From contig CBDATR010000009.1 in assembly GCA_965200155.1 (NCBI GenBank), positions 32,001 through 96,000 of the forward strand: a DNA stretch of 64,000 nt, given 5' to 3'. The notes beneath the pieces are model-generated. The model was given only the letters and a program-made list of their open reading frames with translations, had not been told where the DNA came from and did no database searches. The position numbers and the translations under genes are program-made. The DNA is from Nitrosopumilaceae archaeon (GTDB taxonomy: Archaea; Thermoproteota; Nitrososphaeria; Nitrososphaerales; Nitrosopumilaceae). This document shows, piece after piece, positions 10,563-64,000 of this stretch. How positions within the stretch are numbered: the first letter of the stretch is position 1; every line of letters starts with the position of its first letter.

Positions 10563-10663
10563 GTATGAGTTCACGTCTTCCGGAATCTTGTGCACAAATC
10601 ACATTAACTAGAACAACCTGTTCCATCAGTTGTGCGTAAATTTAGACACAGGTGAACTCATAC
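10563..10663 (+). mobile_element. MITE family 1, variant B (101 bp), no TSD
   Basis: TIRs; truncates the adjacent IS481-like copy. Confidence 0.9.
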
Positions 10664-11605
10664 GTGAGAAGTGCAACCTTCTCTCATTGTAGTAGTCCAC
10701 ATAATCCCGGAGACTGTCATAATGCCATATCTCATTGGACTCTTAAATAAGAGTCCCCTCGTCCTCAATCATTCCATGGAAGCGCTCCAGTTTGCCATTT
10801 GTCTGCGGGTGGTATGGTCTGGAATTGATTAGTATGATGTCTTGATTCAGCAGTTCTTCCTCGAATAGTGGGTTTCCAGTTCTTTTTGCCCTTTTATTGT
10901 CCTACGAAACACGCGCCGTTATCCGAGATGTAGGGGCGCCGAATCGTTTCATTGCCAGTCTCAGTAATAGAGTGGCGTTCTCTGAGGTTGCATGCTCAAA
11001 TAGTGCCGCTCCGACTATACACCTGGATGTATCATCTATGAGATTCAGTCCCCTGAAGCGCTCATCTTTTCATGACATGCCAGTGCCACATTGCATTGGA
11101 ATATTTACGCTCATAGTGTACCCACTCTGACTTTGCAGATGATGAGACTGCCGTACAGGTATGAGTTCACGTCTTCCGGAATCTTGTGCACAAATCACAT
11201 TAACTAGAACAACCTGTTCCATCAGTTATGCGTAAATTTAGACATAGGTGAACTCACACCCGTACAGTTCTTTTTCATTATGCGATATACTGCGCGATAT
11301 GTATGTCTAAGCCTCTTTGCAATATGTACTACTCCGGTGGGATCCTTGCTGTATGCTTCAGTTACCATTCGTATCTGGGTGGCGGTGATTGGTATCATAG
11401 GCCTGCCCATCTTTACTCGAGTCGTTCCCGTCCTCTGGTTCACAATCTTCGTACGTGTCTTGTTTCAGGTCTTGAGCTATTTTGGTGGCGGCAACGCCTC
11501 TTGTCTTGATTCCTCTGTTATTCTCTTTACCATCTGGCTTGTGCAATGAAATAGTCAGCTACTGTACGCCGGATCCTAAGCGGACTTACTTTTCGTACTA
11601 TTGAA
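10664..11605 (-). mobile_element. IS481-like element copy 1, decayed and truncated
   Basis: Near-identical inverted copy of 22079-22912; integrase-core INSRPYHPQTNGKLERFHG; multiple stops and frameshifts. Confidence 0.8.
11159..11259 (+). mobile_element. MITE family 1, variant B, nested in IS481-like copy 1
   Basis: Perfect TSD CCGTACAG; the equivalent site in IS copy 2 (~22410) is empty. Confidence 0.95.
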
Positions 11606-12443
11606 TACTGATTGAGTCGGGACTGACACCATCCCCTGTTGCGCATAGTATACCGTCCCCGCTTACAGAGATATCTATGATTCCGGTACTAAACCCTTCC
11701 GGTATGAGTCCCCTGACATAGGTGGAATCCTCACCAAATGTCAGGTTTGGACTATTCGAGGAAACCATGAAAGTGACGCCGCCGGGCGGGGCGGTTACAG
11801 TGTGCAATAGCGGTCCGCCAGGAATAGATGAATGATAGTCTCTGAGAGGTTGGTCCTTATCTCCTTGTTGGGATTTGGTGTCTCAAATATGCCCTCTGCG
11901 GCACGATTCGCTATGGCGACTGATGTGGTATTGGCCGGTTCCTAGCATATAGCACCGTTCTCGCCGGGTCCCACAATCCACAAGCGGGAAACTGTTCCCA
12001 CGCCGGGATGCGTCTCGACTGGTATCTCGTGTATGCTCCCGTCCGGTGTTATAACGGTAATATCGGTGGAAATCTTGCCGGTTAGAATGGTAGAGCCACC
12101 GGTAGAATGTCAAATATGGCGTGAATCGTGCCGGAATATAGTGTGACAGTTTCGGACAAAACTGACTTTGTTCTAACACAAGTCCCCCTGCCGTACCCTA
12201 TGTCGCCGTCGCATTCATCCACTCGTCGTACTCGTATGTTATCCCACTTTCGTGACTACAATTTAGTGCCCGAATACCCGCTTGAACGAGAACACTATTC
12301 TGTGATTATCTAGACCAACCATCCCCTGTTGCCACCTTCCAGATTCGCCGGTTTTCTGCCTTTTTCTCCTCTGACATGAGCTGAATGTGCACTTTTTGGC
12401 TTCTCTCAAGCTGATCCCGGACTGCAATCTATCACGCGCCGCC

Positions 12444-12839
12444 CTTTCCATTAGCGGCGGAATCTAGTCGGACCATAGTGACCTGCACGTCCAGAGTATG
12501 AGAGTACGCTGGATCTTTCCATTAGCGGCGGAATCTAGTCGGACCATAGTGACCTGCACGTCCAGAGTATGAGAGTACGCTGGATCTTTCCATTAGCGGC
12601 GGAATCTAGTCGGACCATAGTGACCTGCACGTCCAGAGTATGAGAGTACGCTGGATCTTTCCATTAGCGGCGGAATCTAGTCTGACCATAGTGACCTGCA
12701 CGTCCAGAGTATGAGAGTACGCTGGATCTTTCCATTAGCGGCGGAATCTAGTCTGACCATAGTAATCTGGTAACTATGGTAGCTTCCCACTTGAACCGCA
12801 ATGTCCATTAGCGGCGGAATCTAGTCTGACCATAGTAAT
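12444..12839. repeat. CRISPR-like neo-array: six copies of a ~36-bp segment of transposase DNA separated by 35-bp insert A (x4) and 37-bp insert B
   Basis: CTTTCCATTAGCGGCGGAATCTAGTC(G/T)GACCATAGT at 12444, 12515, 12586, 12657, 12728; a second 36-bp duplication at 12731-12766/12804-12839. Confidence 0.9.
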
Positions 12840-13214
12840 GGGCAAAATTTCCATATCCTGGCAAAATTTCATATTATTCCTGGACGCGTATACCCCAGTC
12901 AGCAACATCCTGCAGTACTCATTGCATATTTGTGGTTCTTGGTATGACTTGCCGACATCTGATTGTTTCTCACTTTCATCGGGTAGTTCCAGTACCCTGC
13001 CCACCAGCTCCCTTATGGGGGCCACCATAAGTCTCTAGATCACAAATTCAGCATTTGTCACACAGAATCCCCGTCTTACATACCATAGACTTATGGAACA
13101 TGTTATAGTAACGACGAGTCACCGGTTTGATCATCGGTGACTGCTGCATCTGCTTTCAACATCCACCAGCACTGGTGAATCTCTGTTCCACCTTCAATTT
13201 GTAGCCAATCCATT

Positions 13215-13315
13215 GTATAAGTTCACGTCTTCCGGAATCTTATGCACAAATCACATTAACTAGAACAACCTGTTCCATCAGTTATCCGTAAATTTAGACA
13301 TAGGTGAACTCATAC
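13215..13315 (+). mobile_element. MITE family 1, variant B, inside the IS5 remnant
   Basis: TSD AATCCATT. Confidence 0.93.
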
Positions 13316-13771
13316 AATCCATTTGCCACGGCTACAAGTTTCCAGTCCGGTGAATCATGGTCCGGGTTTCATCGCGATTGGTACTGGCGAGTCGCCATTA
13401 TTGATATCAAGATCTTGCATACATTGGTATATTGTAGAGTAGTACGGGGTTTGTCCCCGTTCAGCATAACCATAAAAACCAGATAGCTGCCGGTATCTAA
13501 TGCCGTGTACATTGCAGCGGGAACCATCATCCGGGCATCCAAATGGTGCACCCTCCTTGTTGGGCTTTCTAATACCACGAGGGGTCAGGCTCAAATGCGA
13601 GACTCATTCCCTGTAGGACGTACTTGGTGAATACTAGGAATATTCCCGGATATTAATGCTTGAATCTAAGATTGTAACAAAGTGGACGGAAATGAACAAA
13701 TTATTCCTCATAAGTGTGATTTGCCTACATAACTTGACCAAGTTATGCAACAATCTACACACTATAGAGCA

Positions 13772-13781
13772 TTTTTATAAA
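13772..13781 (+). promoter_or_regulatory. Archaeal TATA box upstream of srp19
   Basis: TTTTTATAAA about 20-30 bp before the ATG, which fits a leaderless transcript. Confidence 0.55.
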
Positions 13782-13800
13782 CTCATGACGAACACAACAC

Positions 13801-30410: not shown

Positions 30411-30507
30411 AGGAAGTAATGGTTTCACTACATTTCATGCCGGAATCCGCCATTCACATGAAGGACAAGACCGAGATTAACATTGACTTGGGTGCAGAAC
30501 GGGTGAG

Positions 30508-30617
30508 GGCGACCATTGCCGGAATGCATCCGGGAATACATGACCCTACAACACGGAAAGAACTCACTCGAGCACCTTTCGGCGACCATTGCCGGAATGC
30601 ATCCGGGAATACATGAC
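30508..30617. repeat. 37-bp direct duplication flanking a unique 36-bp insert
   Basis: GGCGACCATTGCCGGAATGCATCCGGGAATACATGAC at 30508 and 30581. Confidence 0.92.
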
Positions 30618-31100: not shown

Positions 31101-32790
31101 TGATGCAGGATGCCATTACACAGTACATCAGGAACCGTATTGAGGGAATGACCAGTATACCAGCCATTGTAGTACCAGATGATATTGAAAAGTGGTGCCA
31201 GAACCATAATGAATGGCGACACGCCCCCATGCGTAACAAAGTGCCTTGAAATGATGTCACAGGGCGGGAATTTATCACATTCAGGCCGCTTCCTTGTGGT
31301 CATATATAATCCGAATGCCAGAATCGATATTCCGTGTATTAGTGACCTGTTCCAGGGCGCCCCGGACTATAACAAGAAGATAACAGAGTATCACATCAAC
31401 CAGATAAAGAGGAGTGGTTACAAGGTTTCCCAGCTGCTCCTGGATTCGTTCTAATACATTATGTCCGGGTTGTTCCGCGACACATCCGACAAAATATACA
31501 AAAAACTAGATTGGCGGCTCTCTTCCTTCAAGTATGTCGGTGTATCATCTCGCGGAAGAACAGGCTTCTTGATCGTATCTTTCCTGACTCTACCAGCATG
31601 TCATATTCATACTGCCCCATAATGCAACCACCGGAGTATCTTACTTCCATTATACATAGTGATCAATGTATATAAGTTATATTCATTTGTATTAAATTCA
31701 GGGGAGCTCAAGAACATCATCGGCACAGTGCTTGTGAACCCAGATGTTGGCGGAATTCCTTGTCTACCTTTATCATGTCATCACACTTTATCGCAAAGTG
31801 GGCTTTCATGGTTATATACAGATATATTCTTATTATGGCGCTGTAAAGAAATCAGTACATGTTAAAAAAAGAGTACATGGATCCTGCTGTGTTTCTAGTC
31901 AGTTAGTGATGGAATGATTCACGATTTAGGAGAGATCCTCCTCAATAGGGTAGCCCCAGCTCACGGATTGATGTTTTCAGTGGATTAATGAATATTGAAT
32001 GATTCGGGCGCCACTACATTTTCGGTACCGGATAGATTCGCCGTCCAGTCATCCAGGATTCATCATGTATAGGGTCTGCGGGCTACTGATCAACTGTATG
32101 TCAAACTTCAATGACGGTTCCAGAAGTGTTCTGGTATTATGAATGCGGAACGAAATCTCCCAGCCCTCATCCAACGATACTATGATGGTATTGTGACTCT
32201 TCCGCTCTATCTCTTTTAGTCTGGTTGGCAGTTTGATATGATTCACACGTGACATGGGCTTTCGCCTGCCATCACCATGCCCTAATGAGCCATTCAGATT
32301 ATACCCCTCTATTCTTACAAGATTACACTTGTCATCATTACTTTGTAAAAATCGTGCATCCCAATCAAATACTGGAGCAGCCGTCCGGGAACCATTCCGT
32401 TACTCTCGGTCAGTCTGGTCATTACTGAATGCATCCAGGATCGGCTCATACATTTGTGAATCCTTTTCTGTCACATCTCTCCAGTGTGTGATTCCTTGGG
32501 ACTGCCACTCCTGTACTTGATCAAAAATCATCCAGATATCATTCATGTATTCACGAGAGCAGTTAACCCCGACCCACTTTACCAAAATCTATGTTGGGCG
32601 ATAACCGGGAATGCTTCAATGCTTTGTGGTTATTCTTTGCAGAGAACCCAATCTCCCAGGAGTCATCAGTTCTGGCGTTAATGACATCTCGGACATCGCC
32701 GTCCTTGCCGCGGTAGTCCGGCTGAATCTCTATCACACTACCACTGGATATCATGGGTTCCAGATTCATTATGTGAATGATGGTCGCCCT

Positions 32791-32904
32791 AGCTACCATA
32801 CTGTAATCATTCCTCTCATTTTCTGCCATCAAGGACTCGTGGGGTGTCCAAAACGATGCATTTGCAGCTGCCATACTGTAATCATTCCTCTCATTTTCTG
32901 TCAT
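32791..32904. repeat. 35-39-bp direct duplication (1-2 mismatches) flanking a ~36-bp insert
   Basis: AGCT(A/G)CCATACTGTAATCATTCCTCTCATTTTCTG(C/T)CAT at 32791 and 32866. Confidence 0.88.
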
Positions 32905-33098: not shown

Positions 33099-33132
33099 CA
33101 CTCAAAGGCCTTGTCGTTCAGGTGCTGTCTTG

Positions 33133-33952
33133 TCATGATTCCAACCCGTTTGTTACATTATGACTGAGTATCAACAACTCCCTGGAATGCTTATTCCTGG
33201 ACATGCCATACTTCCACTGTGGGGATATGATGGCGTAATTATGGTACAGGTGGCGCACCTAGAATCGGATAAGATAGTAGACGGGCTGCCCGCAGATATG
33301 ATGGTGTAATTATGGTACAGGTGGCGCACCTCTGGTGAGTCATTGTACGATAGTATCCAATTATCATACCGTTCCAGTAATGTGGCAAGTCCCTCATGGT
33401 TAAAACCGGTTGTGGTTCTATACCCGTACAGGTTGGTCCTTATATGGGGGATCAAGATAGATGAAATCATCATTCCACATCGTTCCCATGGACTGGTTAA
33501 AATCTGCTAACTGAACGGTCATGTTGGAACAACGGAATTGTTCCAGTCTCTCTATGGATGACTCTGTGAATCGTGGATGACCCGGCGACATACCGCCTCT
33601 CATAGTACTGCCAGAGAATGAGCAACGATTTATGACAAAGAATATAGCCGCTCTGGTATATTTTGACGGGGAATGATACTGTTGTAATTGGTAGAAGCGT
33701 TCCTTCTCTAGCAGATAATACTCCCGTACTAGATTGGCCAGTCTCTTCGGGTCATGGAACAGGCACTGCCAGAATTCCACTAATGGTTCAAAGTTGTCAT
33801 AGCCGTGAATAGTGATACCATTCCGGGCGCATGAGATTTCGACTGCCCCCCATGAAAGGTGAGTGTAATATTTTGACATGATCAGGGATATATTGCATGA
33901 TTTTCTTGACACCGCGGGTCTTGCCGCCTGCGTATCTCAGGGGGGAAATCAT
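33133..33952 (-). pseudogene. Dam-like (D12 class) N6-adenine DNA methyltransferase pseudogene
   Basis: SPLRYAGGKTR, SPFMGG, FVINRCSFSG, FIYLDPPY, WILSYND; ATGA overlap with the REase start; frameshifts. Confidence 0.85.
33224..33331. repeat. 37-bp direct duplication (1 mismatch) flanking a unique 34-bp insert
   Basis: GATATGATGG(C/T)GTAATTATGGTACAGGTGGCGCACCT at 33224 and 33295. Confidence 0.92.
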
Positions 33953-36769: not shown

Positions 36770-38419
36770 ATGGCTATGGCCGTAAATGATATTATGATAC
36801 CGGTTCGGATGTTGACGCAGTATGTTTATTGTAACAGGTTGGGGTATATGGAATGGTTACAGGGTGAGTTTGAGACGTCAACAGACGTGGAACAGGGCAG
36901 ATTCGTGCACCGCAATGTGGATACCATATCCGGTACAAAGAAAATCCAGCAGGATGGGGAGATACACGCCACATCCGTTATGATATCGGATGTGAAACTT
37001 GGGCTGGTAGGAAAGCTGGACTTGCTTGAGATTGAGGGTCGCGCCGCGGTGCCAGTAGAATACAAAAAAGGCAAGGTACCCGATATCCAAGGAAATGTGT
37101 ACGATAGTACACTGGTGCAGGTTTGTGCGCAGGCACTACTCTTACGCGCAAACGGTTACAAGTGCACCGAGGGCGTGGTATATTATGTGGCGTCACGGCG
37201 CCGGGTTCGCGTGATTATAGATGACATACTGATAGCAAAGACTTTGCAGGCCATATGGGACCTAAAGGAGATGGTCAAGAAGAATATCATACCGCCACCT
37301 TTGGTGGATAGCCCAAAATGTCCGCGGTGTTCACTGGTGGGCATATGTCTTCCTGACGAGGTAAATCTGTTGTCAAACCAAAAGATAAAGGTAGACTCGG
37401 TGCGTCGTATGTATCCCATCAGGGCAGATGCAGTTCCAGTACATATACAGGAGCAGGGTGCATCTGTCTCTGTAACAGGAGATACGCTACAGGTGAAATC
37501 TACCGATGGGCAGAAACGGAAAATACGCATAATCGACGTGTTGGACTTGACTGTATATGGTAATGTTCAGATAACCACACAAGCACTACGTCGCTTGCTT
37601 GAGCGTGGCATATCCGTTTGCTATATGACATATGGAGGATGGTTCGTGGGCATGACCAACGCGGGTATGAACAGGAATATCGATTTGAGAATCCATCAGC
37701 ACAGGGTGTATGATGACAAGATTTCATCGCTAGATATATGCAAAAATATTGTTTATGGTAAGATAAGAAACTGCATGACGCTCTTGAGGCGCAACCACAA
37801 GTCTGATGCTACCAGGGTATTGGGAGAGATGTCGCAGATGGCAGATAAATCTCGGGGATGTAAAAAATACGAAACGCTCCTAGGTATAGAAGGAATGGCC
37901 GCCAGACTGTATTTTTCAAATTTTGCCGGTATGCTGAAAGACGATTCGGGGTTTGATTTTAAGCAGAGAAACCGGCGGCCGCCCAAGGATCCCGTTAATG
38001 CCATACTGTCGTTTTTGTATGCGTTGCTGGCCAGGCAAGCGACAGTTACCGTGATGGGGGTGGGGCTGGACCCATATATCGGGTATCTACATACGCCACA
38101 TCATGGCCGTCCATCACTGGCTCTGGATATGATGGAGGAGTTTCGCCCAATCATATGCGATAGTGTGTGTATTAGTATGATAAATAATTCCATGCTTGTC
38201 CCATCGGATTTTACAGATGCGGCCATGGGCGTATCGATGACGCAGAACGGACGGCGACGGGTTCTGGATGCCTTTGAAACACGCATGGACACTACCATAA
38301 AACACGAGATACTGGGTTACTCGGCAAGCTACAGACGCATACTGGAGACGCAGGTAAGGCTGCTGGCAAGGCGTGTTACAGGAGAGATACAAGCATACCC
38401 ACCTTTCAGGGTGAGGTAG
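36770..38419 (+). CDS. cas1: Cas4-Cas1 fusion (type I-G)
   Basis: Cas4: YCNR, GKLD..PVEYK, Q...Q, CPRCSL..C. Cas1: LLGIEG.AA..YF, RRPPKDPVNAILS..Y, GYLH, LALDMMEEFRP. Confidence 0.95.
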   Translation: MAMAVNDIMIPVRMLTQYVYCNRLGYMEWLQGEFETSTDVEQGRFVHRNVDTISGTKKIQQDGEIHATSVMISDVKLGLVGKLDLLEIEGRAAVPVEYKKGKVPDIQGNVYDSTLVQVCAQALLLRANGYKCTEGVVYYVASRRRVRVIIDDILIAKTLQAIWDLKEMVKKNIIPPPLVDSPKCPRCSLVGICLPDEVNLLSNQKIKVDSVRRMYPIRADAVPVHIQEQGASVSVTGDTLQVKSTDGQKRKIRIIDVLDLTVYGNVQITTQALRRLLERGISVCYMTYGGWFVGMTNAGMNRNIDLRIHQHRVYDDKISSLDICKNIVYGKIRNCMTLLRRNHKSDATRVLGEMSQMADKSRGCKKYETLLGIEGMAARLYFSNFAGMLKDDSGFDFKQRNRRPPKDPVNAILSFLYALLARQATVTVMGVGLDPYIGYLHTPHHGRPSLALDMMEEFRPIICDSVCISMINNSMLVPSDFTDAAMGVSMTQNGRRRVLDAFETRMDTTIKHEILGYSASYRRILETQVRLLARRVTGEIQAYPPFRVR

Positions 38420-38587
38420 GTTGCGAAGCCTGTATATGCCCTCCACAAACTTGGCGGCGCTACTGTGCCGGAACACCTTTCAGGGTGAGGTAGGTTGCGA
38501 AGCCTGTATATGCGACTCAGGAGATGCCCGGTATCATAATGGTGAGGTATCTTTCAGGGTGAGGTAGGTTGCGAAGCCTGTATATGC
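38403..38587. repeat. CRISPR-like mini-array at the cas1/cas2 junction: three 37-bp repeats, two unique 37-bp inserts
   Basis: CTTTCAGGGTGAGGTAGGTTGCGAAGCCTGTATATGC at 38403, 38477, 38551. Confidence 0.95.
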
Positions 38588-38844
38588 TATGTTATGATGT
38601 GCGCGATCCAAAAAGACTGAACAAAGTATACAAGATGATGAATGGGTATGGGGATCCGGTGCAGTACTCGGTGTTTTTGTGTGATTTAAGCGACACCGAA
38701 ATGGTATACATGAAGCGAGATTTGACAGAATTGCTGAATTTGAATGAAGACAGGGTAATTATTGTGAATACGGGAAAAGGTGATAAAATACAGACCATGG
38801 GCGAACCGCTAAAACACAGTCGTGAATCGGCAATCATAGTATAG
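38569..38844 (+). CDS. cas2: CRISPR-associated Cas2
   Basis: YDVRDPKRL..V..MM.GYG..VQYSVF.C.L, ED.V motifs. Confidence 0.95.
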   Translation: MRSLYMLCYDVRDPKRLNKVYKMMNGYGDPVQYSVFLCDLSDTEMVYMKRDLTELLNLNEDRVIIVNTGKGDKIQTMGEPLKHSRESAIIV

Positions 38845-39010
38845 CGAGAGGCCGGGTGCCAGGGTAGTCGTGTAGTGATAATCGCTAAATAACCATATAT
38901 AGTATGACCGTATTGTACGATTATGGCGGAGGCTGAACAAAACAAACGTAAAACATATGTAATTCTTATGAATTGGAAAGTATTGTTATGATGTTGTTAA
39001 CCTGCGCAGT
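38845..39010 (+). promoter_or_regulatory. CRISPR leader
   Basis: AT-rich non-coding region before the first repeat; the degenerate repeats are at the opposite end. Confidence 0.8.
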
Positions 39011-42000
39011 ATTTCCGCAGCCTAACGGTTGCGGCCTCATTGAAGGGATGGTTATAGCCACGAATGCGGCGGGGACGTCCACGGATTTCCGCAGCCTAAC
39101 GGTTGCGGCCTCATTGAAGGGAGAATCGACACGGCTAACGGTTGAGATACTCTAAGATGCCACGATTTCCGCAGCCTAACGGTTGCGGCCTCATTGAAGG
39201 CAGCGTATACCCGCCCGCGACCGTCTCTCTAATTAGATTTCCGCAGCCTAACGGTTGCGGCCTCATTGAAGGAGACTCCCACGACATATGTCTGTACGAA
39301 CATGCGAAGATTTCCGCAGCCTAACGGTTGCGGCCTCATTGAAGGAATATATAAGATTCAATTGAATGTATTCTGCCTAATAGATTTCCGCAGCCTAACG
39401 GTTGCGGCCTCATTGAAGGAGTCAGCTGTAAGTCCTCTAATGAGCCTGTCATATTATTTCCGCAGCCTAACGGTTGCGGCCTCATTGAAGGGCGGTGATA
39501 ATAAAATAATAGGAGAAAAGGGACAGGATTTCCGCAGCCTAACGGTTGCGGCCTCATTGAAGGCAATTACACGCCTAAATTCATTTCGGACTTCCGTTAA
39601 ATTTCCGCAGCCTAACGGTTGCGGCCTCATTGAAGGCGACATGAACATTCCAAATCGTTTTTTGACGTCGCGTAATTTCCGCAGCCTAACGGTTGCGGCC
39701 TCATTGAAGGTGAGGGTTTGATGGGACAATTAGAACCGGGCACGTATTTCCGCAGCCTAACGGTTGCGGCCTCATTGAAGGAGGCTGTCTGGTGTATTTT
39801 TTGCGTGGTTTTACGCATTTCCGCAGCCTAACGGTTGCGGCCTCATTGAAGGGCCTGCCACCACTGTAATCTCTGCCTCATGATTGTAATTTCCGCAGCC
39901 TAACGGTTGCGGCCTCATTGAAGGCCGACACACGCGTGGACGCGGCGGATGTACCTGCAATTTCCGCAGCCTAACGGTTGCGGCCTCATTGAAGGATTGT
40001 GGCCGGTGTCGATCAAGGTACGCCGGATCCACATTTCCGCAGCCTAACGGTTGCGGCCTCATTGAAGGTACGGTATACGCGTATTTTGTCACCTGATTGA
40101 CATTTGATTTCCGCAGCCTAACGGTTGCGGCCTCATTGAAGGGACGGCATCCAAGAGCAGTGCATGTACGAGCCCGAACACATTTCCGCAGCCTAACGGT
40201 TGCGGCCTCATTGAAGGGACCGTCCCACCCACATTCCGTCCATATATGGGATTGCCATTTCCGCAGCCTAACGGTTGCGGCCTCATTGAAGGACCTGTTA
40301 GAGACGAGCTGGTCCATGAGCTCAATTGCTATTTCCGCAGCCTAACGGTTGCGGCCTCATTGAAGGTGACTTGAGTGTCTCCACCCTCTGCAGATATGCC
40401 TGATTTCCGCAGCCTAACGGTTGCGGCCTCATTGAAGGTGTATCAGTGGACGGCATGATCTATGTAATCAATAAAGATTTCCGCAGCCTAACGGTTGCGG
40501 CCTCATTGAAGGTAGAGGCGGCGTTCATTTGTTTGATTCGTCGACAGGTATTTCCGCAGCCTAACGGTTGCGGCCTCATTGAAGGGATGATGACTCGGAA
40601 GAATTAACAGTCCCGGGATACTTATTTCCGCAGCCTAACGGTTGCGGCCTCATTGAAGGTGATGCCTGGTATCCATGCGCGTACGACTTTGCCAGATTTC
40701 CGCAGCCTAACGGTTGCGGCCTCATTGAAGGGGCCCAGACTCATGGATTTTGCAGAATTCACGGCATTTCCGCAGCCTAACGGTTGCGGCCTCATTGAAG
40801 GTATTCAGTGCCCACATCCCGATATTCATTCAGCGGTGATTTCCGCAGCCTAACGGTTGCGGCCTCATTGAAGGCCGCCCTCCGCATTGACGCCACTCGG
40901 TGCCGGTGGGGATTTCCGCAGCCTAACGGTTGCGGCCTCATTGAAGGGGCGATATGCGACAAAAGAAACAACGACAATAGCAGATTTCCGCAGCCTAACG
41001 GTTGCGGCCTCATTGAAGGACATGTTGCATGTTCTATAATGTGCTTAAGTGCCATAATTTCCGCAGCCTAACGGTTGCGGCCTCATTGAAGGTGCCAAAA
41101 GGCATGCCAACGTGTGCTTTGTGTGACAATATTTCCGCAGCCTAACGGTTGCGGCCTCATTGAAGGAACGAGAGGGCGGAATTCCGAGTTGCGTCTTATT
41201 AAGATTTCCGCAGCCTAACGGTTGCGGCCTCATTGAAGGGCGTCTTGGATTTTCACCGCTCCTTATACCGACTAAATTTCCGCAGCCTAACGGTTGCGGC
41301 CTCATTGAAGGCAGCATCCCACTCCAACATAACCTGACCACTCTGTGATATTTCCGCAGCCTAACGGTTGCGGCCTCATTGAAGGATTGATCTCTGATTG
41401 ATTCGCACCCTTGTCGATCAGTATTTCCGCAGCCTAACGGTTGCGGCCTCATTGAAGGCTGAAAATCGGATCTTGACTTTGCCAACGCCATATGATTTCC
41501 GCAGCCTAACGGTTGCGGCCTCATTGAAGGAGTCGTAAATCCTTTAATTCCCGGATCCGTCCTCCATATTTCCGCAGCCTAACGGTTGCGGCCTCATTGA
41601 AGGATAATGCTGGAATGTAACAAGTCGTTGGGCGTTGAAATTTCCGCAGCCTAACGGTTGCGGCCTCATTGAAGGCCCGGTATCAGGATCCTCCATATAG
41701 GGCCCAATTTCATTTCCGCAGCCTAACGGTTGCGGCCTCATTGAAGGTGACTGCTTTTATGCTGGTTTCGCCGAGCATGACTGATTTCCGCAGCCTAACG
41801 GTTGCGGCCTCATTGAAGGGCGGCCGCCTCCGCGAATCCACCTGCCGCCGCGGGCCCATTTCCGCAGCCTAACGGTTGCGGCCTCATTGAAGGGCATTAG
41901 ATACGAGTGCGAGAACAATGGCAGGCACCACATTTCCGCAGCCTAACGGTTGCGGCCTCATTGAAGGGCACCCGATCTGATATATTCACACATAATGCAA

Positions 42001-45000
42001 TTATATTTCCGCAGCCTAACGGTTGCGGCCTCATTGAAGGTACGGAATGGATTTCCAACTGGCGCTCCAGCGCTACCAATTTCCGCAGCCTAACGGTTGC
42101 GGCCTCATTGAAGGAACCGTGGAATTATTCATTACATTCGCACTTTGGTATTTCCGCAGCCTAACGGTTGCGGCCTCATTGAAGGAACTACTTTGTGTAC
42201 GCCGCATATGTCATGCCATGTGATTTCCGCAGCCTAACGGTTGCGGCCTCATTGAAGGGTTATTTTGGCGATCCCACGTGATTCTGGCCCATATATTTCC
42301 GCAGCCTAACGGTTGCGGCCTCATTGAAGGTAGAAGGATCTGTCCAAGAAACGCCATATGGATATAATTTCCGCAGCCTAACGGTTGCGGCCTCATTGAA
42401 GGTAAAAGTGGAGTCTGGCAAGATCCCACTTTTTTCATATTTCCGCAGCCTAACGGTTGCGGCCTCATTGAAGGCTTACCCTCGCCGTGAACAAAGTCAC
42501 ATTCTATGCAAATTTCCGCAGCCTAACGGTTGCGGCCTCATTGAAGGTAACACATATATGGGGGTATTATGTTAAACATGTTACAATTTCCGCAGCCTAA
42601 CGGTTGCGGCCTCATTGAAGGAGGATGTGGCGACCTATATGTCGCTCACGGGACCTGATTTCCGCAGCCTAACGGTTGCGGCCTCATTGAAGGACGCAAA
42701 ATCCTTGACATGCACCGGCCATTATTCAAATTTCCGCAGCCTAACGGTTGCGGCCTCATTGAAGGACGTGAACAGTGTAATTTTGTAGAGCTTTTGAGCC
42801 AGATTTCCGCAGCCTAACGGTTGCGGCCTCATTGAAGGCGATCATATGACTCACTCCACCCCACCAAAAAATTAAGATTTCCGCAGCCTAACGGTTGCGG
42901 CCTCATTGAAGGAGGAGGACTGAGGGTAAGGACTGGCAGTCGCAATATAATTTCCGCAGCCTAACGGTTGCGGCCTCATTGAAGGAGATTCTCGCGATAT
43001 GCGATTTGTGATGCATGTACTATTTCCGCAGCCTAACGGTTGCGGCCTCATTGAAGGTAACCCTAATACTCCTCATGGTATTCGTCCTGCTACTACTATA
43101 TTTCCGCAGCCTAACGGTTGCGGCCTCATTGAAGGAAAGCTGCGGAATCCAATAGACCTTGTGCCACTGCCTGATTTCCGCAGCCTAACGGTTGCGGCCT
43201 CATTGAAGGCAAACCCTCGATTATCAATATCCTTTAAAAGAGGTGCATTTCCGCAGCCTAACGGTTGCGGCCTCATTGAAGGTGTGATCGATTTAAAATT
43301 TGCGACGGGTTTAGATATATTTCCGCAGCCTAACGGTTGCGGCCTCATTGAAGGCATGTATCTTTATTGCACGGAATCATTGTGTCGACTATTTCCGCAG
43401 CCTAACGGTTGCGGCCTCATTGAAGGGACTCATCACAAACATTAATCTATGACCCTGTGCATTGCGGCCCCGCACGTCAAACCATTTCCGCAGCCTAACG
43501 GTTGCGGCCTCATTGAAGGGACTCATCACAAACATTAATGGCGGAGGATGTCGGGATTTCCGCAGCCTAACGGTTGCGGCCTCATTGAAGGCGGTGGTTG
43601 TACTAGTTAGTAATGAATCTGCCTTGGATTTCCGCAGCCTAACGGTTGCGGCCTCATTGAAGGCTTACTGAGTAGACTCGATCTGCGATGTGGACGTAAC
43701 GATTTCCGCAGCCTAACGGTTGCGGCCTCATTGAAGGGAATTCGTAAATAATCGCGGCGTTAATAGCACAATAATTTCCGCAGCCTAACGGTTGCGGCCT
43801 CATTGAAGGACCCGAATTGCAAATCTTAATATGGCCGCCGAATGGAAATTTCCGCAGCCTAACGGTTGCGGCCTCATTGAAGGGTTAAACCAAATTCGTT
43901 TGTGCCGTCTCCGAATTCTCCATTTCCGCAGCCTAACGGTTGCGGCCTCATTGAAGGAACGAACGCTCCAAAAATTCCAATTCCGGCGTTATGTATTTCC
44001 GCAGCCTAACGGTTGCGGCCTCATTGAAGGGACCATGTTAATATTACCTGTCCACTCTGTATGACACATTTCCGCAGCCTAACGGTTGCGGCCTCATTGA
44101 AGGACTGAGTTCATGTGCTTTGATCTCATGTTTGTATTATTTCCGCAGCCTAACGGTTGCGGCCTCATTGAAGGTGTCGATACTAATATTGCCTGGGATG
44201 CTTACGAAATTATTTCCGCAGCCTAACGGTTGCGGCCTCATTGAAGGTTGTAATATTGATCGAGAGCCCGCGATTCATTATATCATTTCCGCAGCCTAAC
44301 GGTTGCGGCCTCATTGAAGGTGGCATCAGTTGCATCTTATTCACAGAGGTTGGGAGAATTTCCGCAGCCTAACGGTTGCGGCCTCATTGAAGGACATATC
44401 CATTCCATGGTCTTTGCTCATCATATTGGTATTTCCGCAGCCTAACGGTTGCGGCCTCATTGAAGGAGTCAATTAAAAGGAGATATTGAGCCGGCGTGGA
44501 ATTCATTTCCGCAGCCTAACGGTTGCGGCCTCATTGAAGGGGGGAATTTTCCATGTAAGTTATGGGTGCTAATAGACATTTCCGCAGCCTAACGGTTGCG
44601 GCCTCATTGAAGGTATACACTCACTGCATATAGAGTGGCTCCTGAGGAGATTTCCGCAGCCTAACGGTTGCGGCCTCATTGAAGGTAATGACCGGTTTAC
44701 TTATCATATTTTCACCATACTTATTTCCGCAGCCTAACGGTTGCGGCCTCATTGAAGGCACACGCGCGACTCTATAGGCATGACCCAGGCTTGAATTTCC
44801 GCAGCCTAACGGTTGCGGCCTCATTGAAGGTTTTGTCCATTTTGCTTGTTGCATACTCTAGTATACGATTTCCGCAGCCTAACGGTTGCGGCCTCATTGA
44901 AGGGACATTCTAAAAGTGACCGTACCGGGTCCACTTTTATTTCCGCAGCCTAACGGTTGCGGCCTCATTGAAGGGACAATGGCGTGACAGGCAGCGATCT

Positions 45001-48000
45001 CCGAGGCAAGATTTCCGCAGCCTAACGGTTGCGGCCTCATTGAAGGTGTTAGTAGTGTTTTAGCAAATCCATGGCTATTAAGATTTCCGCAGCCTAACGG
45101 TTGCGGCCTCATTGAAGGTAGCATAATCGTTTGTCATAAGCCATTTTTTTACGCGGATTTCCGCAGCCTAACGGTTGCGGCCTCATTGAAGGTGGACTAA
45201 TGACACACGGGCGTCCGTGGCCTGAAATATTTCCGCAGCCTAACGGTTGCGGCCTCATTGAAGGCTCCCCAATGCCGCCATTAATTTTGTCTCGCGGCGG
45301 AATTTCCGCAGCCTAACGGTTGCGGCCTCATTGAAGGACGGCAACAGGCCTTAATGACGGCACGACATATTGGATTTCCGCAGCCTAACGGTTGCGGCCT
45401 CATTGAAGGGGTGCATATTTTGTGGCCGACAGTCTGTATGGCGCTTATTTCCGCAGCCTAACGGTTGCGGCCTCATTGAAGGTGACTATTACTGCTTTTT
45501 TTGGGCTTCGCTTTTTGATTTCCGCAGCCTAACGGTTGCGGCCTCATTGAAGGTCCTGATAAAAATCGATCCTATATACTTTCCATGTGCGATTTCCGCA
45601 GCCTAACGGTTGCGGCCTCATTGAAGGACGAATGGAGGGCCTGAAAGGTAAACTGACTGGCGGGATTTCCGCAGCCTAACGGTTGCGGCCTCATTGAAGG
45701 GTCGAGTTCATGGAGATTACATCAAGCCGGGATATAATTTCCGCAGCCTAACGGTTGCGGCCTCATTGAAGGTACTATACACTCGAATCCTCGCACTCCT
45801 CATTCTACTATTTCCGCAGCCTAACGGTTGCGGCCTCATTGAAGGACTTAGTAAAAGTGACCGCCCAAGGTCCACTTTTTAATTTCCGCAGCCTAACGGT
45901 TGCGGCCTCATTGAAGGTGTGGTAAACCAAATTGGCGTGGGCGACGGCACGGATATTTCCGCAGCCTAACGGTTGCGGCCTCATTGAAGGCCCGCCCTGC
46001 ACCCCTTGCCACCATACCGCATACAAATTTCCGCAGCCTAACGGTTGCGGCCTCATTGAAGGGTTCGATGTTAGGACTGAGTCCACCGCAGGATATGGGA
46101 TTTCCGCAGCCTAACGGTTGCGGCCTCATTGAAGGACATTGTGGTTGGCAGGTCTAGTCGGCGCGGGAATGGCATTTCCGCAGCCTAACGGTTGCGGCCT
46201 CATTGAAGGTGAGATAGCAGTAGTAGGATCTTTAAGGATTTCTTTATTTCCGCAGCCTAACGGTTGCGGCCTCATTGAAGGAGGATGAGGCAAAAGCAGC
46301 AAGACGCCGCGATTATGTATTTCCGCAGCCTAACGGTTGCGGCCTCATTGAAGGTTCGAAGAGATGGATCTTACCAGAAAAAAACAATGGGCATTTCCGC
46401 AGCCTAACGGTTGCGGCCTCATTGAAGGTTGTGACCTGTCCATTACCGCTCTCTGCAATAGCAATTTCCGCAGCCTAACGGTTGCGGCCTCATTGAAGGG
46501 TGCCTATGTTGTTGCCGATGTATTTTTTTTGGCTCGAGATTTCCGCAGCCTAACGGTTGCGGCCTCATTGAAGGCGCCAGGTTCATAAAGCTCGCATTGA
46601 CCCGTGCCATATTTCCGCAGCCTAACGGTTGCGGCCTCATTGAAGGGATAATGTAACAGGTGAATTTTTGAGCGGGACAGATTATTTCCGCAGCCTAACG
46701 GTTGCGGCCTCATTGAAGGCAAATTCCATGTTGTATATTTCCCTCATGTCTTTTTTATTTCCGCAGCCTAACGGTTGCGGCCTCATTGAAGGGAACAAGC
46801 GGTCAAGTCACAATAAGTTGGAATGCCGATTTCCGCAGCCTAACGGTTGCGGCCTCATTGAAGGAATCGCCCATTGCTCATGAATGTACTTAGTTAATTC
46901 CTATTTCCGCAGCCTAACGGTTGCGGCCTCATTGAAGGTTCAATGTCCATACGGCATATGTCGGCGATTGATTTATTTCCGCAGCCTAACGGTTGCGGCC
47001 TCATTGAAGGAATCCGTAATGCTCATACGAGCCGTCAGTGTCGCTCATATTTCCGCAGCCTAACGGTTGCGGCCTCATTGAAGGTATAAAAACAACCATG
47101 CATACTGTAAAGCATGTAACAATTTCCGCAGCCTAACGGTTGCGGCCTCATTGAAGGGCCTCAACCACGTGCATCTCTTTCTTGGCGGCCTCAAATTTCC
47201 GCAGCCTAACGGTTGCGGCCTCATTGAAGGTGTTCAAGCCAAGCTTATGGTTGAATATTCAACGCCTTATTTCCGCAGCCTAACGGTTGCGGCCTCATTG
47301 AAGGTGCTTGTTGCATAGTATACATACGGCATTACGGTATAATTTCCGCAGCCTAACGGTTGCGGCCTCATTGAAGGGATCAAAGCCCTAAACCACAGGC
47401 CGCCGCGAGCATAATATTTCCGCAGCCTAACGGTTGCGGCCTCATTGAAGGTTGGCAAAATCATTGTATTATTCGTACCACCACCTATGATTTCCGCAGC
47501 CTAACGGTTGCGGCCTCATTGAAGGGTGTAAGGGCGCGCAATGCAACTGGTTGGGGTGCATAATTTCCGCAGCCTAACGGTTGCGGCCTCATTGAAGGGC
47601 GTGCGCCAGGGCTCGCGAATCGCATGGATCAATATTTCCGCAGCCTAACGGTTGCGGCCTCATTGAAGGCCTCGATATTGTTGGCCGTGTCTATAAGAGT
47701 ATTAAATTTCCGCAGCCTAACGGTTGCGGCCTCATTGAAGGTACTCAACCCAAAAGAAGTCCTCGGGTATCTGGTTCATATTTCCGCAGCCTAACGGTTG
47801 CGGCCTCATTGAAGGCGACGTTCCCTTGTATAAGACACATTTTGTTATACATATTTCCGCAGCCTAACGGTTGCGGCCTCATTGAAGGACCAAAAGTCGC
47901 TAATTACAAAAAATACGCATGGTGTATTTCCGCAGCCTAACGGTTGCGGCCTCATTGAAGGGATGGTATAGTCACGATTAATTACCTGTCCCTTTTCATT

Positions 48001-51000
48001 TCCGCAGCCTAACGGTTGCGGCCTCATTGAAGGTTAGTCGCTGTATATCTCGATATAATTTACCTAATGGGGATTTCCGCAGCCTAACGGTTGCGGCCTC
48101 ATTGAAGGCAGTTAGGAGCCATGCGGTATATTTGTGGTACAATAATTTCCGCAGCCTAACGGTTGCGGCCTCATTGAAGGAATTTGCTGGGCGTGCCTGC
48201 TCTTGCGACTCTATCTAATTTCCGCAGCCTAACGGTTGCGGCCTCATTGAAGGAGGACGCAGGCAGGGCGATATATGATGACAGCATATAATTTCCGCAG
48301 CCTAACGGTTGCGGCCTCATTGAAGGGTTGAGTGGTTTGATAATTTAGGATTGCATGGTGTATATTTCCGCAGCCTAACGGTTGCGGCCTCATTGAAGGG
48401 TGCGATGTATCTGGTTTGTTTTGGAGCGCTGTTATAAATTTCCGCAGCCTAACGGTTGCGGCCTCATTGAAGGCACATATCTGTAACCACATTGCTCGCA
48501 CTCAAAAGCAAATTTCCGCAGCCTAACGGTTGCGGCCTCATTGAAGGGCCGATTCATATTCCGTAAGAAGGTATAGCAGTGAAACATTTCCGCAGCCTAA
48601 CGGTTGCGGCCTCATTGAAGGATTACCCGCGGGAACAAAAACCAATGTGGCAATTAATTTCCGCAGCCTAACGGTTGCGGCCTCATTGAAGGTATTCCCC
48701 AAGGTGTCAATCGACGTAAAGAAAGTAGAATTTCCGCAGCCTAACGGTTGCGGCCTCATTGAAGGATGAATTACAGTTGGATCTTAATGAAACTGAACGT
48801 GAATTTCCGCAGCCTAACGGTTGCGGCCTCATTGAAGGATATTGTAATTAAGTATACATCTATATATGCCAGGCAATTTCCGCAGCCTAACGGTTGCGGC
48901 CTCATTGAAGGGCATCGGCCCAGGCACCACAGTCACATCTCTTTTTGATTTCCGCAGCCTAACGGTTGCGGCCTCATTGAAGGGTCTTTGTGGCGCGGCT
49001 CAAAACTAGTGATGTGTCCTATTTCCGCAGCCTAACGGTTGCGGCCTCATTGAAGGGGAACCAAAAGTCACGACGATATGTCGCACTTAGTATAATTTCC
49101 GCAGCCTAACGGTTGCGGCCTCATTGAAGGTATTTGCCGTGGTCACTGGCGGCAACATACTTACCCGATTTCCGCAGCCTAACGGTTGCGGCCTCATTGA
49201 AGGGCGGCGCGCCTGGCAATACAATCGGGGCCGCGGGCCTTGATTTCCGCAGCCTAACGGTTGCGGCCTCATTGAAGGGTGGAGCTGTTGGGGCTGCTAA
49301 CGGCGCCACAGGTGATTTCCGCAGCCTAACGGTTGCGGCCTCATTGAAGGCACATGGCGGCGGATCAATTGAGCAAATATATTCCAATTTCCGCAGCCTA
49401 ACGGTTGCGGCCTCATTGAAGGCAACCACCTGGTCGTCAAATATCACGGCCGCTGGCGATTTCCGCAGCCTAACGGTTGCGGCCTCATTGAAGGATTGAT
49501 CGCATGAATGAAGTGGCCGCTTATTGGCAAAATTTCCGCAGCCTAACGGTTGCGGCCTCATTGAAGGGATCTCGTGTTGTTTGTCTATTACCTCTGCCGA
49601 TACAAATTTCCGCAGCCTAACGGTTGCGGCCTCATTGAAGGTACGCGATTTGTTGCGTGGTTTTTTGACCAACACCCTATTTCCGCAGCCTAACGGTTGC
49701 GGCCTCATTGAAGGGACGTGGCCTCGGAAAAAAATGGCGTATGACAAAAGGCATTTCCGCAGCCTAACGGTTGCGGCCTCATTGAAGGTTTCCAGTATGT
49801 AATTCCACCGGGTGCGTTCTCGTAATTATTTCCGCAGCCTAACGGTTGCGGCCTCATTGAAGGTACTGTCCAACATCCACCACCGCCAATACTTCATAAT
49901 TTCCGCAGCCTAACGGTTGCGGCCTCATTGAAGGTTATCATCATGAGCATAATAGACGCGGCCAGTGTATTATTTCCGCAGCCTAACGGTTGCGGCCTCA
50001 TTGAAGGGTCTTTCCTTGCCATTGAATGGGATCTTTACATATACATTTCCGCAGCCTAACGGTTGCGGCCTCATTGAAGGGCCTCTATGAGTGCTTCTTT
50101 AAGGACTTTGTTAGTATAATTTCCGCAGCCTAACGGTTGCGGCCTCATTGAAGGTACCAAGTTGGGATGCTGCTTCGCGACTGCCTGATACAATTTCCGC
50201 AGCCTAACGGTTGCGGCCTCATTGAAGGTGGGTTATACCTACACCGCTCACATGCCTGCTCTATTATTTCCGCAGCCTAACGGTTGCGGCCTCATTGAAG
50301 GAGTAAGGCAGGGGGCGTGTGGCAAGGGGGGGTAATAGATTTCCGCAGCCTAACGGTTGCGGCCTCATTGAAGGTCTGGAGCACACAGTGCACTCAACCA
50401 AATGGCAAGATATTTCCGCAGCCTAACGGTTGCGGCCTCATTGAAGGTCTCAACAGCCGACGACGATCGCGAGGTATACGAGATTTCCGCAGCCTAACGG
50501 TTGCGGCCTCATTGAAGGTCAACCATTTCGGCCAATAAAATGTTCGATTTTTCAATTTCCGCAGCCTAACGGTTGCGGCCTCATTGAAGGGTAATGGTGT
50601 TGTTACCATTTCACCGGTATTTGGGTCATTTCCGCAGCCTAACGGTTGCGGCCTCATTGAAGGAATGTACCTTTGATTACGATACATTGCCCTATTTGTA
50701 TTTCCGCAGCCTAACGGTTGCGGCCTCATTGAAGGAATGTACCTTTGATTACGATACATTGCCCTATTTGTATTTCCGCAGCCTAACGGTTGCGGCCTCA
50801 TTGAAGGTAACGGTCACGCACACATTCGCGGCGGGGGAGGCCAATTTCCGCAGCCTAACGGTTGCGGCCTCATTGAAGGATCCCCATTATTGCTATGTTG
50901 TATTTGACTCGTATTATTTCCGCAGCCTAACGGTTGCGGCCTCATTGAAGGTTGTGATGAGGATATATTTCATGACACGATCCCGCCGATTTCCGCAGCC

Positions 51001-54000
51001 TAACGGTTGCGGCCTCATTGAAGGGTTTGAGGTTCGCTCAATTAACAGCGTAGGCACAGGGATTTCCGCAGCCTAACGGTTGCGGCCTCATTGAAGGGCA
51101 AATAGATGCATGTCATGCAACCAAACAATACATATTTCCGCAGCCTAACGGTTGCGGCCTCATTGAAGGTATATCTGCATATACGTCATGTGTCGACAGG
51201 AAGAATGATTTCCGCAGCCTAACGGTTGCGGCCTCATTGAAGGTTAGCAGTATTTGGGTTGGGCGTGCACATAACCATTACTGATTTCCGCAGCCTAACG
51301 GTTGCGGCCTCATTGAAGGCACGCATATTACTGCTACAGAGTTGGCAAAAGGAGCGATTTCCGCAGCCTAACGGTTGCGGCCTCATTGAAGGTTGGGCTT
51401 GGTGTGGATTCTGTCGTCGGCCTCAATATTTCCGCAGCCTAACGGTTGCGGCCTCATTGAAGGCGTGTGCGTATAATCGTACTCAAACTCACCAAGTATT
51501 AATTTCCGCAGCCTAACGGTTGCGGCCTCATTGAAGGGCCTCTTTCCGTCGCAATCACTTATCTGGTAAAAATATTTCCGCAGCCTAACGGTTGCGGCCT
51601 CATTGAAGGATGGCATAAGCCCAAGCACCACCGCGAATTACTTTAAATTTCCGCAGCCTAACGGTTGCGGCCTCATTGAAGGATTGTGCCCACAGAGACA
51701 GGTCAACGCAATTTGGTGATTTCCGCAGCCTAACGGTTGCGGCCTCATTGAAGGGGCAAAGGATCACAACAGGCATGGCAATTTGTGAGTAATATTTCCG
51801 CAGCCTAACGGTTGCGGCCTCATTGAAGGCATTAGACTTCCTCCACAATGGGGACTCTATATGCAATTTCCGCAGCCTAACGGTTGCGGCCTCATTGAAG
51901 GTCATCTTTCACGTCCTCAAGCAGGCCGCCTGTAAATATTTCCGCAGCCTAACGGTTGCGGCCTCATTGAAGGGGATTTTACAGCTTTTGGATCGATTGT
52001 GAGCGTGATATTTCCGCAGCCTAACGGTTGCGGCCTCATTGAAGGCGTGGTCACTGGCGGCAACATACTTACCCGATACGGGATTTCCGCAGCCTAACGG
52101 TTGCGGCCTCATTGAAGGCATTTTCCATACTCCATATGCACATGACATGTTATAATTTCCGCAGCCTAACGGTTGCGGCCTCATTGAAGGCTGAGTTCTG
52201 GCAATTTGCCGCCCTCTGCTATACCACATTTCCGCAGCCTAACGGTTGCGGCCTCATTGAAGGCGGGTGGTGCTGATATTGTGACTTGTGCCTGTGACAT
52301 TGATTTCCGCAGCCTAACGGTTGCGGCCTCATTGAAGGAGTGTAAATAATGAGAAATACATAGCACATATTGAGATTTCCGCAGCCTAACGGTTGCGGCC
52401 TCATTGAAGGGCCCAATACCGTGTCCGCACCTACCGTAACTTTACCGATTTCCGCAGCCTAACGGTTGCGGCCTCATTGAAGGAAGCGATTGTTTGTTTT
52501 CGTGCATTATCGAGTGCATTAATTTCCGCAGCCTAACGGTTGCGGCCTCATTGAAGGATGGGGACGGTCAGGTAACAATCAGGTGGAATGCCGATTTCCG
52601 CAGCCTAACGGTTGCGGCCTCATTGAAGGTGTTTGGTATTTAGCCAAATAGAAATATCCACATATTATTTCCGCAGCCTAACGGTTGCGGCCTCATTGAA
52701 GGTCATAACAGGACTAACTAATGGGGTTACGTATTGGTTATTTCCGCAGCCTAACGGTTGCGGCCTCATTGAAGGGAGACATCGTGACGGGTAACGACGG
52801 CGACGACATAGATTTCCGCAGCCTAACGGTTGCGGCCTCATTGAAGGCTGGTTTTCGACACAAAATCTGTACCTCTTCATTACTAATTTCCGCAGCCTAA
52901 CGGTTGCGGCCTCATTGAAGGAAATGACTTAAGTAGTCGCCCACACGTAAGCACGGAATTTCCGCAGCCTAACGGTTGCGGCCTCATTGAAGGCAATTCA
53001 TTAATTATATTACCATTCAATGGTATATAATTTCCGCAGCCTAACGGTTGCGGCCTCATTGAAGGGAATATACACCATAAAAGATATTAGTGTCGCATGT
53101 CAAATTTCCGCAGCCTAACGGTTGCGGCCTCATTGAAGGACGACTGCAGAATCGAGTTTAACAAATTTGGTGAGCTATTTCCGCAGCCTAACGGTTGCGG
53201 CCTCATTGAAGGATTGGTGAGTACGCGTTCGGTGCGAACAAGGCAGGATATTTCCGCAGCCTAACGGTTGCGGCCTCATTGAAGGTTGCTCTTCTCGTCT
53301 CTGGCGGTCTCTTCCTTCTAGATTTCCGCAGCCTAACGGTTGCGGCCTCATTGAAGGATTTGGGGGCAGTTCTTATAATCATGAGTCTCAAAGATTTCCG
53401 CAGCCTAACGGTTGCGGCCTCATTGAAGGAGATCTTAAAAAGTTCATTTTATCGAAAGCAGGTTCGAATTTCCGCAGCCTAACGGTTGCGGCCTCATTGA
53501 AGGTCCAATTTGCGGGTTAATTCCACATCACGCATGTTATTTCCGCAGCCTAACGGTTGCGGCCTCATTGAAGGCAACCACAAGTTAGTTAGCGGCTCCT
53601 TAGATATGACCGATTTCCGCAGCCTAACGGTTGCGGCCTCATTGAAGGGTTTCCTGGCGTTGTCTAGGGCGTTGTCAGAATGGGATTTCCGCAGCCTAAC
53701 GGTTGCGGCCTCATTGAAGGCACCAAAGATTAAACCTTGATAATTATGCGGGTGCCGATTTCCGCAGCCTAACGGTTGCGGCCTCATTGAAGGGTCGTCA
53801 TCATCGCCGCCGCCGTTACCGCCGTCATCAATTTCCGCAGCCTAACGGTTGCGGCCTCATTGAAGGCACAAAGCTACGGACTCGCTTGCCATGACAACTT
53901 GGGATTTCCGCAGCCTAACGGTTGCGGCCTCATTGAAGGTTTCACAACCCGTCAAAATCGCATGGATCAGGGGGGGGATTTCCGCAGCCTAACGGTTGCG

Positions 54001-60000: not shown

Positions 60001-60087
60001 CGGCCTCATTGAAGAATACCATTTCCACTTTGCATTTCGTGATATTACGATATTTCCGCAGCTTAATTGCTGCGGCCTCATTGAAGG
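39011..60087 (+). CRISPR. Type I-G CRISPR array, approximately 290 repeats
   Basis: 36-bp repeat ATTTCCGCAGCCTAACGGTTGCGGCCTCATTGAAGG with hairpin CCGCAGCC/GGTTGCGG and ATTGAAG 3' end; spacers mostly 35-39 bp; last two repeats degenerate. Count estimated from length divided by a ~72.5-bp period. Confidence 0.99.

Positions 60088-61058: not shown

Positions 61059-61062
<4 letters not shown>
60103..61062 (-). CDS. Type I-G large subunit-like protein (Cas8g2/Csb3, Cas3-extension family)
   Basis: L.GLDG.NPLGFLAALG N-terminus, F.AGQQKF, GPW.Y, WPIW; ATGA-coupled to cas3. Confidence 0.75.

Positions 61063-64000
<2,938 letters not shown>

Follow-up and report, generated by a model that had tools for sequence, protein, structure and literature searches.

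The window analysed here, a stretch of 64,000 nucleotides from the genome of a Nitrosopumilaceae archaeon, carries at positions 12444-12839 a tandem structure that with high probability originated by off-target full-site integration by the Cas4/1-Cas2 complex of the resident type I-G CRISPR system, predicted to be intact, followed by slippage that multiplied one of the resulting units. Cas1-Cas2 joins the ends of a prespacer to opposite strands of its target one repeat length apart, and repair then duplicates the target. In the mechanism that we propose, type I-G Cas4/1-Cas2 would occasionally complete both strand transfers away from the array, with the ruler of the integrase fixing the distance between the nicks at 36 nt whatever the target, so that repair would leave a 36-nt direct duplication around a spacer-sized piece of DNA. 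At 12444, two such integrations would have occurred 3 nt apart in non-essential relic DNA bearing a loose resemblance to the ends of the repeat. The first 71-nt unit would then have been amplified by replication slippage or unequal recombination, and two or more rounds of slippage, separated by a single point mutation, would have produced two blocks of sequence variants, either of which could be ancestral. Five further scars in the window would stem from the same integrase, and the scars would persist where they are harmless, i.e. in pseudogenes, in an ORF of no known family, and at the cas1/cas2 junction, where both genes are restored by the duplication.

Structure of the 12444 locus and the relic that carries it

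The locus (Table 1) comprises six copies of a 36-nt segment. The first five, which start at 12444, 12515, 12586, 12657 and 12728, are separated by four identical 35-nt inserts (A), while a second exact 36-nt duplication (12731-12766 and 12804-12839), offset by +3 nt, flanks the 37-nt insert B; the two alignments are referred to below as registers A and B. One position varies, with G in copies 1-3 and T in copies 4-6. The minus strand of the segment translates as TMVRLDSAANGK, and in this frame the G/T change is synonymous. The net insertion amounts to 357 nt, which keeps the frame but contains stops. Within the window, neither the segment nor the inserts A and B occur again. The tandem-repeat call gives a 71-nt unit in 4.5 copies with 99% matches, the copy number being that of the assembly, and this expansion has the properties of a variable-number tandem repeat (VNTR), i.e. 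head-to-tail near-identical units with block-wise variants, which the inserts do not have.

Table 1. Coordinates of the features discussed, in positions of the window
Feature	Position	Strand
Target-site copy 1, G variant, register A, 36 nt	12444..12479	+
Insert A, four times (12480, 12551, 12622, 12693), alternating with copies 2-4	12480..12727	+
Copy 5, T variant, including the left copy (12731-12766) of the register-B duplication	12728..12766	+
Insert B, 37 nt, unique	12767..12803	+
Register-B duplication, right copy	12804..12839	+
Decayed coding relic carrying the 12444 scar, limits approximate; possibly (tentative) an IS5 (IS903-group) transposase	12200..13780	-
Event C: 37-nt exact duplication, period 73, frame shift in an ORF of no known family	30508..30617	+
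Event D: in-frame duplication of 35-36 nt with 1-2 mismatches, period 75	32790..32900	+
Event E: 37-nt duplication, 1 mismatch, period 71	33224..33331	+
Events F1 and F2: 37-nt segment in three identical copies around two different inserts, period 74	38403..38587	+
cas4/cas1 fusion (Cas4g/Cas1g), proposed integrase	36770..38419	+
cas2	38569..38844	+
Leader of the host array	38845..39010	+
Type I-G CRISPR array: 289 repeats of 36 nt, 288 spacers	39011..60087	+
I-G-associated gene beside cas3g	60103-61062	
cas3g (type I-G)	61059..63836	-
MITE-like copies	462, 7124, 10563, 11159, 13215, 18129, 19228, 19692, 22959, 25382, 29287, 31100, 33098, 34192	

The initial annotation of this DNA had described the two exact 36-nt duplications, their 3-nt offset, the 35- and 37-nt inserts, the fourfold first unit and the G/T split between copies 1-3 and 4-6, all of which are borne out by the coordinates. 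Its reading of the locus as a hotspot struck twice, with 36 nt duplicated each time and one unit then expanded in tandem, is better supported than was known when it was made, because the window contains five more events of the same geometry. The four identical A spacers are not four acquisitions, and we infer the order of events, two integrations and then slippage, from the arrangement of the copies. Local slippage appears to be active in this DNA, since a 41-nt VNTR elsewhere in the window has block-wise variants and one host spacer is duplicated. The hairpin in insert A, equalled by 3 of 200 shuffles and by 13 of the 288 host spacers, was considered as a cause of the expansion and rejected; the unexpanded insert F1 folds equally well.

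The relic that carries the locus is interrupted by a MITE-like element at 13215-13315. It had been labelled an IS5 transposase, and we likewise presume that it resembles archaeal IS5 transposases. Searches with Pfam, NCBIfam, PHROGs and phmmer, tblastn against plasmids, and searches of the PDB and the Atlas gave no IS5 hit; an intact copy or a close archaeal copy was not found in any of the searches, pairwise comparison with IS5 proteins of halophiles, a planctomycete and enterobacteria yielded no significant match, an earlier profile mixing the IS903 and ISH1 groups gave no signal on the relic, and the final protein search for IS5 comparators returned close IS903 relatives only. What stands of the label is marginal agreement with a custom profile built from 11 bacterial IS903-group transposases. 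Two collinear stretches of a hand-framed composite of the relic aligned to this profile, ranking only 32 of 1001 against shuffles, and in a frameshift-aware scan the score was reached by 2-6 of 130 genomic windows and by 0-5 of 200 shuffles (three parameter sets), the alignment covering the N-terminal half of the relic and stopping before the repeated segment. The best tblastn lead was discarded, as it lies within a 454-aa ORF that does not match the IS903-group profile, and so were two phmmer hits to repetitive, unrelated proteins. A search for a second copy in the window gave only a 44-nt, 77% match of one end (24108-24151), and no inverted pair bounding the relic was found there. The conclusion of off-target integration is independent of the IS5 label, and the transposon context is incidental: transposon DNA had been put forward as a relevant ingredient of the structure, but the other four loci lie outside this relic.

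Further events of the same geometry

A scan for near-exact duplications revealed seven events at five loci in the 42,891 bases of the window outside the array. The periods of all seven lie between 71 and 75 nt, as do 280 of the 288 repeat-spacer periods of the host array. With 26 matches required in 34 positions at distances of 45-120, the scan returned only a 41-nt VNTR besides the seven events, and none of 20 shuffles gave a hit; with 23 of 34, one of 20 shuffles did, and no older, more decayed scars were added to the seven. When the scan was widened to 24 of 30 matches at distances of 31-2000, the only additions were MITE-like copies, the repeated domains of one gene and one pair spaced by 1.5 kb. 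A uniform model gives 5e-9 for the seven periods, a post hoc value that counts events at the same locus as independent. The duplications have the length of the host repeat (36 nt at A and B, 35-40 nt elsewhere), and the matched blocks of the seven events (36, 36, 37, 35-36, 37, 40 and 37 nt) fit 36 nt plus chance extension. All seven inserts fall within the length range of the host spacers, which are mostly 35-39 nt long with a mode of 37 nt. The duplicate copies differ by 0-2 bases across the events, which indicates that the events are recent yet of different ages.

The same geometry was sought in seven cas4/1 loci obtained from a genome scan, all of them distant and no close relative among them (38-51% protein identity, bacterial or methanogen DNA), and in four 50-kb plasmid stretches. 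No ectopic duplication was seen in any of the seven related I-G loci (83 kb), where all hits were array repeats, and the only hit in the plasmids was a 330-nt region with a period of 78; both comparisons are a weak baseline, because the DNA compared is distant and gene-dense.

Several of the scars lie inside genes. Family searches with the gene at C gave no match. The gene at D is a broken HaeIII-family endonuclease gene (minus strand), in which the match to the family profile begins at the second copy, the upstream piece alone giving no score. The gene at E is a broken Dam/D12-family methylase gene (minus strand), whose alignment to a plasmid Dam-family methylase requires, as it stands, a 24-residue gap with stops; when 71 nt are removed in silico, it aligns along residues 197-268 with 50% identity over 72 columns. 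Each of the two genes carries one scar plus other frameshifts, and so the scars need not have been the first hits. Together these genes form a broken restriction-modification pair at 32250-33950 on the minus strand, with the HaeIII-family nuclease beside the Dam/D12-family adenine methylase.

At 38403, the repeated segment holds the stop of cas1 and the start of cas2, and both genes are intact. This junction is single-copy in all four related I-G loci in which cas2 follows directly behind cas1, and when the window junction is collapsed, its spacing is identical to that of L002. Judging from homologues, the insert is thus the derived state at E and at F; for the 12444 locus and for C no homologue was found. 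The 38403 locus is a better neo-array than 12444, with one register, three identical copies and two different spacers.

A 48-codon ORF (38421-38567, plus strand) lies between the two genes, with a single base left between it and the cas1 stop on one side and the cas2 start on the other, and the coupling chain at the cas1/cas2 junction is restored after two insertions and out of frame with one; this could be due either to chance or to selection. Of the five scar loci, all but 12444 are at window positions 30500-38590, no more than 8.5 kb from where the array begins, a clustering that may reflect proximity to the leader or simply the location of dispensable DNA.

The integrase, its proposed targets and competing explanations

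The products of cas1 and cas2 score above the NCBIfam cut-offs, and the Cas4/1 fusion can be aligned over its full length to the Geobacter protein of PDB 7mi4 (E=1e-147). The equivalents of D87, K102 and E380, residues mutated to inactivate Geobacter Cas4/1 according to the accessible text of PMC6547450, are present in the Cas4/1 protein of the window when counted along the 7mi4 alignment. The Cas4/1-Cas2 integrase is therefore predicted to be intact. CdvA, TFIIB and SRP19 genes in the window mark the host as an archaeon, and CdvA together with the cupredoxin content would point to the Nitrososphaerota.

The leaders of four of four bacterial I-G arrays (L001, L004, L005 and L006) share a phased set of three motifs, CGAG at -175 or -164, CTCG at -140, -139 or -129, and CTCG at -51. 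The leader in the window keeps one of the three, having CGAG at -166 but lacking CTCG; visual inspection shows a remnant with one mismatch at -130 and nothing at -51. The loss of leader motifs, or the lack of a bacterial DNA-bending factor in the archaeal host, might perhaps lower the specificity of integration, a link to fidelity that is drawn from four comparator leaders. Targeting is largely functional, as is evident from the 288 on-target spacers.

In two of the related loci (L004:11717-11900 and L005:9209-9392), leader and array come immediately after cas4/1, without an intervening cas2. The host array itself contains, at 43391-43539, a 56-nt duplication (the repeat and the first 20 nt of a spacer) around a 37-nt insert, which looks as if the spacer-side nick had fallen 20 nt beyond its proper position. 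Spacers 160 and 161 of the array (50628-50807) are identical, a slippage duplication of one repeat-spacer unit, and other host spacers overlap on the same or opposite strands (e.g. 139/179, 205/245, 103/227 and 84/147), which suggests that the same invaders were sampled repeatedly or by primed acquisition.

The likeness of the 12444 segment to the ends of the host repeat, also pointed out in the initial annotation, holds for register A: its 5' end matches 5 of 6 bases of the host repeat, which 0.55% of 84,528 background 36-mers reach, its reverse 3' end matches 8 of 12 bases (0.25% of the background), and its gapped score against the host repeat in the best orientation is in the top 0.12% of the 36-mers of the window. 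The 38403 site is in the top 4.9% by gapped and 1.6% by ungapped likeness, while register B (12.5%) and loci C, D and E are ordinary, with a range of 12.5-73%. The two sites that were hit twice, 12444 and 38403, are the most repeat-like ones, and both begin with CTTTC. Fisher combination of repeat likeness over the five loci gives p ~0.006, with scoring parameters chosen once.

It had also been suggested that 12444 captures the birth of an array, and for a birth in the functional sense the evidence is adverse. An array with one register and distinct spacers is found only at 38403; 12444 has two registers and one spacer present four times by slippage. Comparison of 10400-13800 with the window by blastn disclosed no likeness of the 12444 flanks to the leader, and a promoter scan gave results at chance level with a bacterial-type model, archaeal promoters being outside its scope. 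Folding yields an 8-bp hairpin for the host repeat (z -2.85), and none of the eight strands of the duplicated sites folded below z -1.21. The 12444 locus appears to be a scar and not a working array. Could it be instead the remnant of a second genuine CRISPR array, or of one brought in by a mobile element, with a repeat of its own? The sizes of repeat and spacer are CRISPR-like, and the reverse strand ends in the manner of many repeats. This origin is nevertheless highly improbable, given the two registers and the four identical spacers, the folding of the segment (z +0.5 to +1.7, versus -2.85 for the host repeat), the lack of any Rfam match in 10000-39400, and the presence of a different 'repeat' at each of the five loci, which at E and F is plainly gene sequence.

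The inserts were also considered as locally copied filler, produced without Cas1 by templated insertion during break repair or by template switching. The region is prone to slippage, and two inserts share sequence with their targets: B contains an 8-nt inverted copy of the end of its target, as much as is found in 8 of the 288 host spacers, and F2 a 9-nt direct copy from its own target, a feature of none of the 288. This sharing may hint at homology-assisted capture. In five of the seven inserts, however, sharing with the own target does not exceed chance, the combined p value amounts to 0.17 when the target is considered and to 0.42 when 60 nt on each side are added, and repair offers no reason why seven periods should all fall within 71-75 nt; we consider templated filler very unlikely. 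Neither a source nor a PAM was found for any of the seven inserts, the comparison covering the window and the host spacers for all of them. In 50,697 phage records, insert A had chance hits only (best E=1) and insert B, for which a BLAST search had been proposed, had no match.

Another integrase, such as a casposase-like Cas1 or a transposase with tiny footprints, is about as improbable as a second array. Mobile relics abound in the window (14 MITE-like copies, IS481-like and TnpB fragments), but target duplications made by transposases are typically shorter than 15 nt, both lengths in the scars match the host array, and the 34 ORFs scanned included no second cas1. As to the assembly, from which alone the structure is known, tandem units are hard to assemble, and yet no assembler could create, at five loci, unique inserts flanked by 36-nt duplications, and the G/T blocks as well as the mismatches at D and E represent divergence after duplication. 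An artefact behind the fourfold 71-nt unit or the whole structure is thus extremely improbable; it could affect the copy number of unit A only, which is itself rather unlikely. Only Cas1-Cas2 integration predicts the lengths of the duplications and of the inserts at once, and we infer from this match that the resident Cas4/1-Cas2 is the enzyme responsible.

Known systems, consequences and the surrounding DNA

Isolated or orphan CRISPR arrays attributed to off-target acquisition reportedly have their primary account in Shmakov et al. 2020. The scars resemble such arrays in being array-like structures away from the main array; as far as the available descriptions go, they differ in having locus-specific repeats that are loosely or not host-like, one or two spacers and no leader. 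Off-target acquisition is named as one of three routes to isolated arrays in the accessible part of 10.64898/2026.04.27.721218.

The closest experimental parallel is provided by the neo-CRISPR arrays of E. coli (Nivala, Shipman and Church 2018, as represented in the accessible text of 10.1101/148544, PMC7054753 and PMC6698737), in which spacer-sized DNA was also integrated outside the array and proposed to seed new arrays. As described there, these were rare events in a type I-E system with over-produced proteins and supplied oligonucleotides, the evidence from two other species was circumstantial only, and in one of the three texts it is called unclear whether neo-arrays commonly arise. In contrast, the events in the window are natural and fixed, belong to an archaeal I-G system with a Cas4/1 fusion, and number seven in 43 kb, with several scars inside genes and two sites struck twice.

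The systems of Geobacter sulfurreducens (PMC6547450, PDB 7mi4) and Methanosarcina barkeri (PMC10274657) likewise have a Cas4/1 fusion and spacers of ~36 nt. In vitro, M. barkeri Cas4/1 alone is stated to choose the correct site in 80-90% of cases on the leader side and in 60-70% on the spacer side (PMC10274657), and the accessible text of these I-G studies (PMC6547450, PMC10274657) does not describe chromosomal off-target products in vivo. Off-target integration in vitro is said, in the available passages, to rise without HU in Thermotoga (PMC13769266), without histones in Pyrococcus (PMC13748974), and without IHF or the leader inverted repeats in type I-F (10.1101/2023.05.26.542337). Compared with these systems, the genome studied here records a possible in vivo consequence, the host factor being hypothetical in its case.

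In the full-text literature, where most subscription papers lie outside the coverage, no report of several fixed natural scars in one genome was found, and the supplements of Nivala 2018 and Shmakov 2020 may list natural cases. The process itself is known from over-expression in E. coli and from in vitro work; the natural density, the archaeal I-G setting, the hits within genes and the re-use of sites appear to be new.

A more far-reaching reading, which we regard as possible but rather doubtful, is that a bacterial-type I-G adaptation module, once transferred to an archaeon, was deprived of part of its leader targeting and has since been causing insertional mutations throughout the genome. 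If so, dispensable DNA would carry roughly one fixed scar every 6 kb, gene erosion would be helped along, restriction-modification genes included, site re-use would grow true neo-arrays, one of them within the module's own cas1-cas2 junction, and the 36/71-75 signature would make the in vivo fidelity of the integrase readable from genomes alone. The scars bear on how often Cas1-Cas2 misfires in nature, at what cost, and whether this seeds new arrays. They constitute a countable natural record, seven off-target events versus 288 on-target spacers, that spans slightly decayed and pristine scars, single and repeated hits, and hits in genes; it yields natural target sequences for a well-studied class of enzymes and a simple search signature for any genome. 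The loss of leader motifs is a specific hypothesis that can be tested in vitro.

The intergenic DNA of the window is decayed and contains 14 copies of a MITE-like element of ~100 nt with inverted ends (Table 1). Two of them bound an IS481/IS3-like integrase relic (10563-11259), a second copy of which lies near 22079-22913, and a split TnpB/IS605 OrfB gene is found at 25685-27053 on the minus strand. The 41-nt VNTR, located at 19848-20168 with 7.8 copies and an A/G variant in two blocks, adjoins a MITE-like copy.
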